Shown: in pieces, positions 45,916 to 50,400 of the stretch
Position numbering within the stretch: position 1 is the stretch's first letter
Layout: each line of letters opens with the position of its first letter
NCBI GenBank assembly: GCA_963844715.1
Contig: CAWJPJ010000006.1
Location: 512,001 to 576,000, forward strand
From: an uncultured Phycisphaerales bacterium
Lineage (GTDB): Bacteria; Planctomycetota; Phycisphaerae; Tepidisphaerales; Tepidisphaeraceae
Length of the DNA: 64,000 nucleotides
Reading direction: 5' to 3'
Translations under genes and position numbers: made by a program
Notes under the pieces: generated by a model
The model's database searches: none
The model's input: only the letters and a program-made list of their open reading frames with translations
What the model was told of the DNA's origin: nothing

Positions 45916-46776
45916 ATGCCCGCGCCGGCCATCAATATCCTCCACATCACCACCAACGAACACACCGCAATCTTCGACGACCTCCTCGAACTCCTCACCG
46001 ACACGCTCGAGCAACTCGGCCATGCCGTGCAGCGGACGACAACTCATTTCGACCGCAGCCGCATCAACATCCTCGTCGGCCACACGGCCGCTCTCGAAAA
46101 AGAAGCCTACGACTCCATCCGGAGCAGCGGCGCGAAATACATCATCTTCCAAATGGAGACCCTCACCGACCGCCCCGGCATCCCGCGCCCGTCGCAGGCT
46201 TATCTCGACGTCCTGTCCCATGCCAACCAAGTCTGGGATTATTCGAAAAACAACCTGGCGTTCCTGGCCGCCCGCGGCTGCCGCGATTTGCAATTTATTC
46301 CCCTGGGCTATTCCCGCCGCCTCGAACGAATCGCGCATGCGGAACAAAAAGACATGGACGTCCTCTTCTACGGCGCCGGCAACGCACGCCGATTGAAAAT
46401 CGTCGATGCCCTCCGCGCCCGCGGCTTGCGCGTCGACGCCTTCTTCAAAGCCTACGGCTCCGCCCGCGACCAGGCCATCGCGCGAGCCAGGATCGTTCTC
46501 AATCTGCACAAGTTCGACCATTCAGAATTGGAACAGGTGCGCATTTCGTACCTGTTGAACAATCGCGTTTTCGTCATTTCCGAATCAGCCGAGGGAAACC
46601 CCTGGGGGGATGGCGTCGTCTTCAGCGACTACGACAAAATCGTCGATTGCTGCGTCGAATCTGCCCAGCCCGGCAAAGACGCCGCCCGCGTAGAAATCGC
46701 AACAAAGGGCTATGAGGCCCTAAAATCATTGCCGATCGGCGCGAGCCTCGAGGCCGCGCTCGCAAGGATCCAGTGA
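45916..46776 (+). CDS. Glycosyltransferase-like (GT-B) protein
   Basis: VWDYS, DVLFYG..RR, IARARIVLNLH, EQVRISYLLNN..VISE. Confidence 0.65.
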   Translation: MPAPAINILHITTNEHTAIFDDLLELLTDTLEQLGHAVQRTTTHFDRSRINILVGHTAALEKEAYDSIRSSGAKYIIFQMETLTDRPGIPRPSQAYLDVLSHANQVWDYSKNNLAFLAARGCRDLQFIPLGYSRRLERIAHAEQKDMDVLFYGAGNARRLKIVDALRARGLRVDAFFKAYGSARDQAIARARIVLNLHKFDHSELEQVRISYLLNNRVFVISESAEGNPWGDGVVFSDYDKIVDCCVESAQPGKDAARVEIATKGYEALKSLPIGASLEAALARIQ

Positions 46777-46779
46777 GAT

Positions 46780-46808
46780 TTGACGCGACCGACGGAGGGA
46801 AGTAGCCT
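46780..46808 (+). promoter_or_regulatory. Sigma70-type promoter of the tRNA-Pro/GIY-YIG locus
   Basis: TTGACG (46780-46785), 17-bp spacer, TAGCCT (46803-46808). Confidence 0.65.
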
Positions 46809-46827
46809 GCTCATCCGGAAGTTTTTC

Positions 46828-46877
46828 CGGGGCGTGGCGCAGTTTGGTTTAGCGCGGTCGCTGCGGCGACAGGCCGC
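46828..46877 (+). other. 5' pseudo-tRNA-Pro with anticodon arm replaced by GTCGC-tgcg-GCGAC
   Basis: cggggcgtggcgcagtttggtttagcgcg matches the tRNA 5' part; followed by the hairpin and aggccgc. Confidence 0.85.
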
Positions 46878-46915
46878 TTTTCCGCAGGAGGCTCAGTTCG
46901 TTGTGACTTTATTTC

Positions 46916-46992
46916 CGGGGCGTGGCGCAGTTTGGTTTACGCGCGCTTGACTGGGGGTCAAGAGGTCGCAGGTTCGAATCCTGTCGCCCCGA
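46916..46992 (+). tRNA. tRNA-Pro(GGG)
   Basis: cggggcg/cgccccg acceptor stem, cttga-ctGGGgg-tcaag anticodon arm, ggttcgaatcc; one extra C at 46940 is probably an error. Confidence 0.93.
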
Positions 46993-46993
46993 T

Positions 46994-47233
46994 TTGTTTC
47001 ACCTATACGTCTTGCGAAGCCAGAAAACCGGCCGCAGATATGTCGGCTCGTGCGAGGACATCATCAACCGCCTTGATCAGCACAACCGTGGCGAGTCCAA
47101 ATCCACCAGACACGGCGTGCCCTGGAAATTGATCCACCACGAAGAATATGCGACCCGAGCGCAGGCAACGCAGCGAGAACGATATTTCAAAACTGGAAAG
47201 GGCCGAGAGGAACTCGACCACCTCAAGGTTTAG
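46994..47233 (+). CDS. Small GIY-YIG nuclease (UPF0213/SLX1-like), copy 1
   Basis: LYVLRS..YVGS..RLDQHN.G..KSTR..PWKLI..EE..A..RERYFK; TTG start inferred. Confidence 0.88.
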   Translation: MFHLYVLRSQKTGRRYVGSCEDIINRLDQHNRGESKSTRHGVPWKLIHHEEYATRAQATQRERYFKTGKGREELDHLKV

Positions 47234-47282
47234 CGCGGTCGCCGCGGCGACAGGTCGCAGGTTCGAATCCTGTCGCCCCGAT

Positions 47283-47522
47283 TTGTTTCACCTATACGTC
47301 TTGCGAAGCCAGAAAACCGGCCGCAGATATGTCGGCTCGTGCGAGGACATCATCAACCGCCTTGATCAGCACAACCGTGGCGAGTCCAAATCCACCAGAC
47401 ACGGCGTGCCCTGGAAATTGATCCACCACGAAGAATATGCGACCCGAGCGCAGGCAACGCAGCGAGAACGATATTTCAAAACTGGAAAGGGCCGAGAGGA
47501 ACTCGACCACCTCAAGGTTTAG
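47283..47522 (+). CDS. Small GIY-YIG nuclease, copy 2
   Basis: Identical to copy 1, offset by 289 bp. Confidence 0.88.
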   Translation: MFHLYVLRSQKTGRRYVGSCEDIINRLDQHNRGESKSTRHGVPWKLIHHEEYATRAQATQRERYFKTGKGREELDHLKV

Positions 47523-47571
47523 CGCGGTCGCCGCGGCGACAGGTCGCAGGTTCGAATCCTGTCGCCCCGAT

Positions 47572-47745
47572 TTGTTTCACGTATACGTCTTGCGAAGCCA
47601 GATAACTGGCGGCCGATACGTCGGGTTCTTGCGAGGACTACGCCGCCCGCCTTGATCAGCACAACCGAGGCGAATCCAAGTCGACCAGACATGGCGCGCC
47701 CTGGAAATTGGTCTACCAGGACGAATATACGACCCGGCCAGCGCG
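47572..47745 (+). pseudogene. GIY-YIG nuclease copy 3, diverged and truncated
   Basis: FHVYVLRSQITGGRYVG / SCEDYAARLDQHNRGESKSTRHGAPWKLVYQDEYTTR, then abuts the stop codon of the next gene. Confidence 0.8.
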
Positions 47746-48768
47746 TCAGAATCCGCTCAAAGTTACTTTCCCGATTGCCTTGCCGCTCTCCGATATGGCG
47801 TGGGCCTTCTTCAGGTTTTCGACATTGATGGGGCTGAGTGTCTGCGTCTGCGTGGAGCGCACTTCGCCTCGGTCAACCAGGTCTGAGACGCGAGTGAGCA
47901 GTCGTCCTTGCTCGGCCATATCCGGTGTCTGCCACATCGAGCGGGCGAACATGAACTCCCAGTGAAGCGATGCCGATTTTCGCTTTAGCGGCACTACGTC
48001 CAGCGATTCCGGATCATCGATCAGTCCAACCTTTCCCTGCGGAGCCAGAACTTCGATCAATTGCGGAAAGTTCCGTGCGGTCGCCGTCAGGCTGGCGATA
48101 TATTTCACCGGAGGGGCGGCCAGCGCCTTCACCTGGTCGGCCAGCGGTTTGGTGTGATCGACCACATGGTGGGCGCCCATTTCAGTCACCCATCGCACCG
48201 TTTCCGGCCGCGATGCAGTTGCGATGACGGTCAGCCCCGTGAGCCGCCGCGCCAGTTGCAAAAGGATTGATCCCACGCCGCCCGCGGCTCCGCTGACCAG
48301 CAAAGACGCGCCGCTGTCGCCCTCGCGAACCCCAAATCGATCGAACAATAACTCCCAGGCGGTGATGCTAGTCAGCGGCAGCGCGGCGGCTTCGGCGAAG
48401 CCGATCGATTTGGGTTTGCGTCCCACCAGCCGTTCGTCCACCGCCTGATATTCCGCATTTGATCCGGGACGATCCAGTTCGCCGGCGTAGTAGACTTCAT
48501 CTCCGACCGAGAACCCACTCACGGCGGCGCCTTTGCCTACGACGACGCCTGCCGCATCCCACCCGAGCACACGCGGCTTCCCCGCGACGGGCGACGCCGA
48601 GCCTTGATGCCGCGCGCCGCGTACTTTCGTATCAACCGGATTCACCGAAACCGCCCGCACCGCAACCAGCAAGTCGCGCGGCCCCGGCTCCGGCCGAGGC
48701 AGATCCATCTCCACCAGCGAATCCTGGACCTCAAGCGGCCCCGGCCGAGTAAAGGCAATCGCTTTCAT
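47746..48768 (-). CDS. Zinc-binding alcohol dehydrogenase family (quinone oxidoreductase-like)
   Basis: SVNPVDTK, LGWDAAG, ALPLTSITAWE, GAAGGVGS, SLHWEFMF. Confidence 0.92.
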   Translation of the reverse strand: MKAIAFTRPGPLEVQDSLVEMDLPRPEPGPRDLLVAVRAVSVNPVDTKVRGARHQGSASPVAGKPRVLGWDAAGVVVGKGAAVSGFSVGDEVYYAGELDRPGSNAEYQAVDERLVGRKPKSIGFAEAAALPLTSITAWELLFDRFGVREGDSGASLLVSGAAGGVGSILLQLARRLTGLTVIATASRPETVRWVTEMGAHHVVDHTKPLADQVKALAAPPVKYIASLTATARNFPQLIEVLAPQGKVGLIDDPESLDVVPLKRKSASLHWEFMFARSMWQTPDMAEQGRLLTRVSDLVDRGEVRSTQTQTLSPINVENLKKAHAISESGKAIGKVTLSGF

Positions 48769-48945
48769 GCTCTCTCCGGCATTGATCGGCCTCTCAGTAT
48801 AGCCCTAATTCAGGTGTGTGAGTCAAACTATCGGTTTGAGTCCAGAAGTCACGCCCCCTACCCTTCAACGTTTTCCAGGCCTCTTCAACTTCAACGACGC
48901 CCCGTGTTGTTCCCAATACTTCGCAAAATGACCGATTACTGCTCC

Positions 48946-49015
48946 GTCGCCCCGATTTGTATCACTTCCACTTCCCGCGACGCCAGACAACCGGCCGCAT
49001 CGTAGCGCGGGTCGC
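48946..49015 (+). repeat. Degenerate, internally deleted fourth copy of the tRNA/GIY-YIG unit
   Basis: gtcgccccgatttgt.tcac..gcga.gccaga.aaccggccgca, then tagcgcgggtcgc (unit end). Confidence 0.75.
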
Positions 49016-49028
49016 GTTTTAGTTCGAC

Positions 49029-50400
49029 CTACGCCGCAATAGCCCTAGGCGTATATCCCCCGTGGGCCAGGTAAACCTTCAGAGCCTCGAATACCTCCGG
49101 GCAAATTCCGTCGCCGGCCGTCCGGGTCAGAATGCTCATCACTTCCTCCGAGGTCAGGTCTTTCCGATACGGCCGCTGCGCCGCCAGCGCCTCGAACATA
49201 TCCGCAACGCACAGGATTCGATCCGCAATCGATAACTGATCCGCAACCAATCCACGATGGTATCCCTTCCCATCGAGCCGTTCGTGGTGCGAAGCCGCCA
49301 GCGATGCCAAATCTCGGAACCCCGCCACCTGGTGCAGCAACTGGTACGTATACGCCGGATGCTTTCGCATTTCGACAAACTCTTGCGGCGTCAGCTTCCC
49401 CGGCTTGTCGAGAATCAGATTGGAAATCCCCAGCTTTCCGATGTCATGCAGCAAACCCGCGCGGCGGAGGATTCGATTTTCCGCCGGGCTGAATCCCATC
49501 GTGGCCCCAATGCCCGCCGCGATTTCCGCAACGCCTTCGGAATGCTTGAACGTCCATGGGCTCTTGGCGTCGATCACCTGCGCGAAACCATGAGCGATGC
49601 GATCAAGCGTTGCCGGGTCAGCAGTTAGGGACTGATCTTGCGGTTCAACCGCCGCTATGGCTTGTTTCGGATCTTCGGCGAAAAACGTCACCCAGAATTG
49701 CTCGTCATTTCGGAATGACGTCATCGCCTGCACCAGATTGGGATCGAACCACGTCCCGCTGCGGTTTTTGGCCACTTCGTAAGCGGCATCGATTCCGTCG
49801 GTGCGGGCAAAAACTTCCACCGTCTGCGACAGCCCAAGAATCCGCGCCAGCAGCGGAATCGCCTGGCCGCGCAAACCTTCCGGATGGCCGTGCCCGTCCC
49901 AATGTTCGTCGAGCGATCGAATCGCCCCGGCGGTGGCCTCGGGAAAATGCAGCTCGCGGGCGATCTTCGCCCCGCGCTCGCATCGCAATTCAACCAGCTC
50001 GCGCGCCCTTTTCGGCCCCGCCAGGGCAACCCTCGCAAGCTGCTCCGCTTTTTTCAGAATCGATCCCTCTGGTCTAACCACGCCCGCCGCATACGCGATT
50101 GCCGACGGCATGCTCGACCAGTTAACGGTCTTGATCCCCCCCTTCACTTTGCGATCATCCGCACCAAATAGAAAGCACATTTTCGAAGCGTTGGTCGAAC
50201 ACCCCAGATCTTTCATCAGCAGCGCATAGAAAAGGGCTGAACTTTGATCCGGCGTCAGCTTCAATTCCCGCGCTCAGCGCATCCCGAAACAACAACTTCG
50301 CGCCGCATGCCCCAGCGGCTGCCCCTCGGTCAAATCCAGCGCATACGAAAGCGCCCCGATGACCTCCGAAAATCGGACTTCAACCTTGTCATTTAGGCAT
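49029..50400 (-). CDS. Tandem HD-GYP domain phosphodiesterase (indels near the 5' end)
   Basis: ALSYALDLTEGQP.GH, KDLGC, EHWDGHGHP, HDIGK, HHERLDGKGY. Confidence 0.85.

Follow-up and report, generated by a model that had tools for sequence, protein, structure and literature searches.

What would place several copies of a small nuclease gene, each enclosed in pieces of transfer RNA (tRNA) sequence, directly behind an intact tRNA gene? This question is raised by a 64,000-nt window from an uncultured Phycisphaerales bacterium (source genome G000; 4.55 Mb in 8 contigs, 85% complete), in which a tRNA-Pro(GGG) gene is followed by 289-bp units that each hold an open reading frame (ORF) for a small GIY-YIG protein. 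Positions given below are those of the whole window; relatives of the source genome have numbers with G and loci with homologs of the ORF numbers with L. With a probability of roughly 60%, we favour the view that the locus carries a minimal selfish cassette, consisting of a gene for a GIY-YIG nuclease of ~80 aa and its cognate 14-bp palindrome, which is nested among copies of the tRNA gene that it has colonised and which would spread by repair. It looks like a very small selfish DNA element that has not yet been described in this form. The observations that carry this view are the architecture of the locus and its recurrence, the co-variation of the flanks with the tRNA next to them, the conservation of ORF and palindrome, the existence of empty as well as remnant sites, and substitution ratios that indicate purifying selection.

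The intact tRNA-Pro(GGG) and the 289-bp units behind it had been noticed in a preliminary description of this DNA, and both were recovered by independent means, the tRNA by ARAGORN and Rfam and the units by TRF (period 289, 2.7 copies, 46963-47736). The copies distinguished at that time were found as well: the units at 46963-47251 and 47252-47540 are 100% identical, a diverged and truncated third copy has 93% identity to the unit over its first 84 nt, and a distal remnant, aligned at 48926-49009, has 64%. The third ORF copy, which ends near 47736, has suffered a 1-nt insertion and many substitutions and runs into an early stop. Each complete unit reads ORF, D-loop/D-stem piece, the perfect palindrome GTCGCCGCGGCGAC in the place of the anticodon arm, and the 30-nt 3' part of the tRNA. 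In these units the palindrome replaces an anticodon arm of 17 nt, and the 30 nt behind it repeat the tRNA exactly from the variable loop through the T arm to the acceptor end. The ORF starts with TTG 1 nt past the tRNA 3' end, and its last codons and TAG stop are themselves tRNA D-loop/D-stem sequence (GGTTTAGCGCG; GGTTTAG). The intact tRNA has an extra C in its D loop (46940), which gives it 77 nt against 76 in all aligned relatives; the D pieces of the cassette units have the canonical sequence without this C. Among public contigs used for comparison (Logan contigs from four soil runs of one study), one of 317 nt equals 47254-47570 without a difference and joins unit 2 to the diverged third copy.

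The preliminary layout was right for the downstream units and missed the upstream half of the element, which is a second, palindrome-bearing copy of the tRNA 5' part. The native tRNA-Pro(GGG) gene is split, with its promoter-side flank running into this broken 5' copy: the 28 nt at 46824-46851, which comprise 4 flank bases and tRNA bases 1-24, recur exactly at 46912-46939, and the palindrome variant that follows the upstream copy has one mismatch. The broken 5' copy has no Rfam tRNA match, and a scan of 46600-49200 gave no Rfam tRNA match besides the intact gene. In G019 and G002, TTGACG-17 nt-TAG(C/T)TT stands 19 nt before an empty tRNA-Pro(GGG), whereas in the window TTGACG-17 nt-TAGCCT with equal spacing stands before the broken 5' copy instead of the intact tRNA. 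A consensus promoter scan of 46600-49100 returned 0 sites, so it is the conservation with relatives that marks this motif as promoter-like. No TTGACG-type motif is present in the 42 nt that separate the broken copy from the intact tRNA. Since the native motif now leads into the broken 5' copy, the intact tRNA of the window is probably read through from the native promoter. With 1 nt between them, the ORF must be co-transcribed with the tRNA, and it would be read from the tRNA transcript without a promoter of its own, in line with the earlier suggestion that the tRNA promoter is borrowed. A search of metagenome contigs for an exact 25-nt stretch of the native flank gave 0 matches. One public contig joins 46851 to 46941, i.e. 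canonical tRNA straight after the native flank; it was given no weight because only 27 letters lie past the joint and 33 nt are common to tRNAs of other organisms.

Table 1. Parts of the tRNA-Pro(GGG) locus in the window
Feature	Position	Strand	Basis
Native 5' flank: TTGACG (46780-46785), 17 nt, TAGCCT (46803-46808), then 19 nt	46780-46827	+	Conservation with G019 and G002
Broken 5' tRNA copy: tRNA bases 1-24, GCGCG, palindrome variant GTCGCTGCGGCGAC (46857-46870), AGG	46828-46873	+	28-nt exact repeat; 32-nt repeat family D4
Spacer, 42 nt, from broken 5' copy to intact tRNA; last 4 nt (TTTC) duplicate native flank	46874-46915	+	
Intact tRNA-Pro(GGG), 77 nt	46916-46992	+	ARAGORN; Rfam tRNA, 58.4 bits
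GIY-YIG ORF copy 1, 79 aa, TTG start	46994-47233	+	ORF call, Pfam
Broken 3' tRNA copy 1: D-loop/D-stem piece (47227-47237), palindrome GTCGCCGCGGCGAC (47238-47251), variable loop/T arm/acceptor (47252-47281)	47227-47281	+	Repeat and palindrome search
GIY-YIG ORF copy 2, same sequence as copy 1	47283-47522	+	
Broken 3' tRNA copy 2, palindrome at 47527-47540	47516-47570	+	Repeat and palindrome search
ORF copy 3, diverged frameshifted pseudogene, cut off beside 3' end of dehydrogenase gene	47572-47736	+	
Old remnant: tRNA acceptor end and ~65 nt of ORF start, 64% identical to unit	about 48946-49020	+	Repeat family D2

That each unit encodes a 79-aa GIY-YIG protein was confirmed by a match to Pfam PF01541 (E 1.5e-12, 48 bits against a cut-off of 22.6, residues 3-70 of 79). 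This single domain fills the protein, and no DNA-binding domain is joined to it. Six residues (Y5, Y16, R26, H30, N31 and E62) are invariant in a 5-sequence alignment (A1), and they correspond to the GIY-YIG catalytic set of two Tyr, Arg, His/Asn and Glu. The nearest solved sequences, PDB 1YWL (E 1.4e-4) and 1ZG2 (E 0.08), are weakly similar, and a scan of the protein against NCBIfam gave a single, sub-threshold match to a group I intron endonuclease (21.8 bits against 56.05). Among viral contigs there was one weak match to the ORF, with 35% identity. The ratio of nonsynonymous to synonymous substitution rates (dN/dS) is 0.13-0.14 between the window ORF and its homologs L028, L050 and L031, and 0.07-0.15 in 5 of 10 ORF pairs, those for which dS was unsaturated and computable. 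By these sequence comparisons the ORF is under purifying selection.

The palindrome recurs well beyond the window. The exact 14-mer is present 13 times in G000, against 0 for its reversed control, and across the relatives it averages 2.6 per genome with an ORF homolog and 0.54 per genome without one; being related, these genomes do not count as independent. This 14-mer is also found in pseudo-copies of Pro, Arg, Lys and Asp tRNAs from Planctomycetota, Verrucomicrobiota, Acidobacteriota and Saccharibacteria. In variant palindromes the symmetry is kept via paired changes, and the central two bases vary. The palindrome stands in place of the entire anticodon arm in Pro, Asp and Ala copies, and in place of six bases at the junction of D stem and anticodon stem in Arg and Lys copies. 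Distant clades have other palindromes and other junctions, and Met/Asn elements stop at TAA in the anticodon loop. Eleven further exact 14-mers of G000 lie away from any ORF copy (e.g. C3:48502, C3:48558, C8:269164 and C7:1064804); some of these dispersed sites come after tRNA-Ser or a tRNA-like 3' fragment, and others lie within short GAATGACGAAT-type or CTACTG-type repeats.

The nuclease gene recurs next to tRNA genes in other organisms. A homolog was detected in 15 of 61 genomes (60 relatives and G000), and of the 22 places outside G000, 12 have a co-oriented tRNA or transfer-messenger RNA (tmRNA) gene ≤200 nt upstream and 2 lie inside 23S ribosomal RNA (rRNA) genes. A pattern scan with one genome per species gave 49 genome loci, 5 of which coincide with places found in the relatives. 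A co-oriented intact tRNA stands within 100 nt in 35 of these 49 loci; 33 of the 35 have extra fragments of that same tRNA, and in 29 a perfect palindrome abuts a fragment. Metagenome contigs gave 41 of 75 loci with a co-oriented intact tRNA ≤100 nt away (36 of them with tRNA fragments and 30 with a palindrome), and an antisense tRNA within this distance in none of the 75; several of these contigs are near-duplicates, so that the counts are not independent. Adjacency to a tRNA by chance would be expected in ~0.2% of cases, as calculated from 75 tRNA/tmRNA genes in 4.55 Mb. The isotypes, ten or more, include Pro (three anticodons), Arg, Lys, Ala, Asp, Asn, Met, Val, Gly, Phe and Ser, and the hosts belong to at least five phyla, among them Planctomycetota, Verrucomicrobiota, Acidobacteriota, Saccharibacteria/Patescibacteria and Bacteroidota. 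The minimal nuclease unit tied to tRNA genes, as first proposed from the window, is in this way met with across isotypes and phyla. The tRNA-derived flanks always match the neighbouring tRNA, while ORF and palindrome are conserved between genomes and phyla; G002 is an example, its D piece and 30-nt end matching its own tRNA-Pro(CGG). A frequent full design runs from broken 5' copy through spacer, intact tRNA and ORF to broken 3' copy. The ORF precedes the intact tRNA in some loci, and tandem arrays of the cassette are also present in other assemblies (G002, L007; and L034).

Homologs of the ORF were also seen at other RNA genes. Those in L012 and L013 (23S) and L062 (16S) lie in insertions of ~350-390 nt within rRNA genes, bounded by 21-33-nt inverted repeats that all start CCCAGC.C.TATTTT, and three more distant homologs, L011, L015 and L022, follow tmRNA genes at 95-190 nt in the same orientation.

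Empty sites, which the preliminary description had proposed to look for, were found in relatives. The window tRNA-Pro(GGG) is 96-99% identical to that of G020, G061, G065, G030, G036, G002 and G019, the aligned relatives being from other genera of Tepidisphaeraceae, and by this comparison it is the lineage's own gene. In G020, G061, G065, G036, G002 and G019 the gene is empty, i.e. without palindrome or GIY-YIG ORF alongside, and the G019 site is syntenic upstream (purD and the gene of a 330-aa protein). Such presence/absence polymorphism at conserved target genes is a mark of homing endonucleases. The tRNA-Pro(CGG) locus differs within the genus: G002 has a tandem array there, and G000 only a D piece and palindrome. 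Among close relatives, the tRNA isotype at which the cassette sits also differs. In the ORF tree, which has moderate support owing to the short alignment, clades track the tRNA isotype and verrucomicrobial ORFs nest within a planctomycete Pro clade.

The empty tRNA-Pro(GGG) of G002 (L084), a genome of the same genus, adjoins the same purD and 330-aa genes in the opposite relative orientation. The ORF-less remnant of G000 (C6:973236-973249) lies 25 nt after tRNA-Pro(CGG) (C6:973286-973362, minus strand) and has an exact match of 26 nt to the end of the G002 element, the two loci being syntenic. The metagenome contigs L110 and L111 have near-identical ORFs and identical downstream flanks and differ upstream: one has a broken 5' copy and an intact tRNA-Pro(CGG), and the tRNA of the other breaks off 5' of the anticodon loop, where unrelated DNA begins.

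Is there a known enzyme that could act on such a palindrome? The closest are the nucleases of the Ssn family (cd10448), which are single-domain GIY-YIG proteins of ~94 aa that bind hairpin repeats (NTS/SRM) flanking their own genes, cut single-stranded DNA a few bases from the hairpin and do not cut double-stranded DNA or RNA; their authors remark on the layout as being similar to that of an insertion sequence (Chenal et al. 2025, PMC11893778). Ssn and the cassette share a single-domain GIY-YIG protein of <100 aa, a hairpin-forming repeat both 5' and 3' of the gene, and dispersal of the repeat in the genome with higher frequency where the gene is present. At 79 aa and with the GIY-YIG domain alone, the window protein also lies within the size range given there for Ssn proteins (single domain, <150 aa). 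Members are recognised in that study by cd10448 as top CDD hit, or by a BLASTP match at E<1e-10 to SsnA of N. meningitidis that spans 75% of its length. The cassette differs by its 14-bp GC-rich palindrome inside copies of a tRNA gene, in the place of the anticodon hairpin, by an ORF that abuts an intact tRNA, and by 13 copies of the repeat in G000 versus the hundreds described for Ssn repeats. The word tRNA occurs 0 times in the main text of the Ssn paper. The earlier statement that no named system has this layout therefore holds in part: the link to tRNA is new relative to Ssn, but the pairing of small GIY-YIG nucleases with hairpin repeats had already been described for that family.

By analogy with Ssn, the protein would bind the palindrome as a single-stranded DNA hairpin and nick beside it, at moments when the DNA is single-stranded, as it would be at a replication fork or, in a heavily transcribed gene, on the displaced strand. 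The breaks may then be repaired by homologous recombination or by strand annealing on the 28-30-nt tRNA-derived repeats, as the anatomy suggests, and this repair would lead to gain and loss of tandem units and to copying of the cassette into similar tRNA genes. The conservation of tRNAs would provide ready-made homology arms. One tRNA copy would stay intact while the palindrome occupies the place of the anticodon hairpin in the others, with selection keeping only those outcomes that retain one working tRNA. No duplication was seen for the ORF relatives within 16S and 23S rRNA genes, which fits this logic. The 28-30-nt direct repeats could be products of such repair or very long target duplications.

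Several points weigh against this view. Cutting and binding by the protein are deduced by analogy with Ssn and mobility from the anatomy, and in a homing model the intact tRNA copy remains cleavable. ORF copies in G000 are confined to the window locus, and the number of identical units there is taken from the assembly alone. No intact tRNA lies within 100 nt in 14 of the 49 genome loci and 34 of the 75 metagenome loci; of these, 5 or 6 genome and 8 metagenome loci are at contig ends, and several others have broken copies only. The related genomes and contigs are not independent samples. A low dN/dS would suit a host function equally well. The cassette palindrome does not fit the published SRM consensus of Ssn repeats, with 0 of 23 palindrome-type sites of G000 having an SRM within 80 nt. 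Given this mismatch, we file the cassette as Ssn-like and not as a proven member of cd10448: it may work like an Ssn-hairpin pair, to which it is likened by layout.

Of the other explanations, a domesticated host nuclease survives best, and we regard it as unlikely. The protein would be co-transcribed with tRNA genes and, for example, resolve structures at highly transcribed stable-RNA genes, the array being a one-off unequal crossover. Strong purifying selection on the ORF, its obligatory co-transcription with the tRNA and its single locus in G000 all agree with this, but a homolog in only 15 of 61 genomes is a patchy distribution for a host gene, and the placement at different isotypes in close relatives, the remnants and pseudogene copies, and an ORF tree that nests across phyla point the other way. 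A housekeeping gene would also not need the recurrent palindrome-disrupted tRNA copies.

A role at the RNA level is less probable still. Here the palindrome-bearing tRNA-like pieces would serve in the transcript as signals by which the ORF mRNA is processed or stabilised, or would be tRNA-like decoys, and the repeats would reflect that role instead of DNA mobility. It would account for the ORF stop within tRNA-derived sequence and for the hairpin and T arm after every ORF, and the symmetry-keeping paired changes would also suit an RNA hairpin. However, the sequence of the 14-mer is conserved across phyla beyond what pairing would require, it is present at the 11 further G000 sites away from ORF copies, and broken 5' copies upstream of the tRNA would be unable to serve the 3' end of the ORF mRNA. 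SsnA, moreover, does not bind RNA (PMC11893778).

We consider it very improbable that the repeats (attL/attR) were left behind when an integrase inserted an island at tRNA-Pro, with the GIY-YIG gene as a remainder of its cargo. Integrase-borne islands use a tRNA gene as target, regenerate an intact tRNA and leave tRNA sequence as a direct repeat; the classic att signature is such a repeat of the tRNA 3' end behind an intact tRNA. This signature is present here, and isolated tRNA-Pro 3' fragments exist in relatives. Nonetheless, such islands measure kilobases and the unit just 289 bp, the repeat also holds a D-loop piece and a palindrome substituted for the anticodon arm, there is a 5' tRNA copy on the upstream side, and one ORF family shows the same design at more than 10 isotypes. 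The preliminary description had reported no adjacent integrase or transposase, and neither domain was found in eight ORFs scanned at 43.4-52.0 kb, which include an alanine racemase, PurD, an unknown 330-aa protein, a Zn-dehydrogenase, an HD protein, a rhodanese and a metallo-beta-lactamase-fold protein. Finally, that the tandem copies are an assembly artefact, i.e. a mis-expanded repeat, has the smallest probability of all: the public short-read contigs do end at repeats and none covers both identical units, but the independent 317-nt contig includes the joint to the diverged third copy, tandem arrays occur in two other assemblies, and the window lies within a 1.26-Mb contig.

We therefore return to the selfish cassette and to the systems with which it may be compared. 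T-even phages have a free-standing GIY-YIG homing endonuclease, SegB, whose gene lies in a tRNA gene cluster (PMC2330249). Its activity drives tandem amplification of a unit of tRNA and segB (718 bp in T6), via a short stretch of homology shared by the tRNA and the end of the gene (PMC13096335). By analogy SegB is the nearest behavioural parallel to the cassette: in both a GIY-YIG gene lies among tRNA genes and forms tandem tRNA-nuclease units, but SegB as described is a phage protein that cuts double-stranded DNA, without a palindrome or palindrome-disrupted tRNA copies. It is also much larger and has DNA-binding parts. As regards insertion sequences, the palindrome lies at both ends of the cassette, and the scan of neighbouring ORFs found no transposase domain. 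In IS200/IS605 and REP/RAYT elements, HUH/Y1 transposases perform strand transfer; a GIY-YIG hydrolase is unable to rejoin DNA, so that the cassette, unlike these elements, would need host repair. What they share with it is a small gene paired with short dispersed palindromes that act in single-stranded DNA (PMC11893778). Stand-alone Slx1-like/UPF0213 proteins likewise consist of a minimal GIY-YIG domain without extra domains; their survey makes no link to tRNA genes, and its three mentions of tRNA concern a TrmH fusion (Dunin-Horkawicz 2006, PMC1564403). A literature search, which covered main texts outside subscription journals, found no small GIY-YIG genes nested in bacterial tRNA genes.

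More tentatively, and at odds somewhat short of even, we suggest that the cassette represents a distinct class of minimal mobile element, in which a hairpin-specific nuclease of ~80 aa and a 14-bp hairpin colonise tRNA, tmRNA and 16S/23S rRNA genes in at least five phyla, and which in tRNA genes would survive by duplicating its target and by using tRNA conservation as universal homology arms between species and phyla. If the selfish reading is true, the element would be among the smallest self-propagating gene units known, with ~290 bp, one 79-aa enzyme and one hairpin, and it would show how a hydrolytic nuclease that cannot join DNA may spread via host repair and tRNA conservation. It would also provide a natural role for Ssn-type nucleases, which their discoverers left open outside Neisseria, and account for many unexplained pseudo-tRNAs and tRNA fragments in uncultivated bacteria. 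The matched nuclease-hairpin pairs, with their several palindrome variants, are candidates for new specificities in single-stranded DNA cutting.

Two minor observations concern the surroundings. A Zn-dependent dehydrogenase gene (47746-48768, minus strand) lies between the third cassette copy and the old remnant, a position that suggests an insertion or rearrangement within a formerly longer array. Outside the window, G000 has a cluster of ~27 tRNA genes in 3.4 kb (C6:952626-956065), including one odd call with a two-base anticodon.

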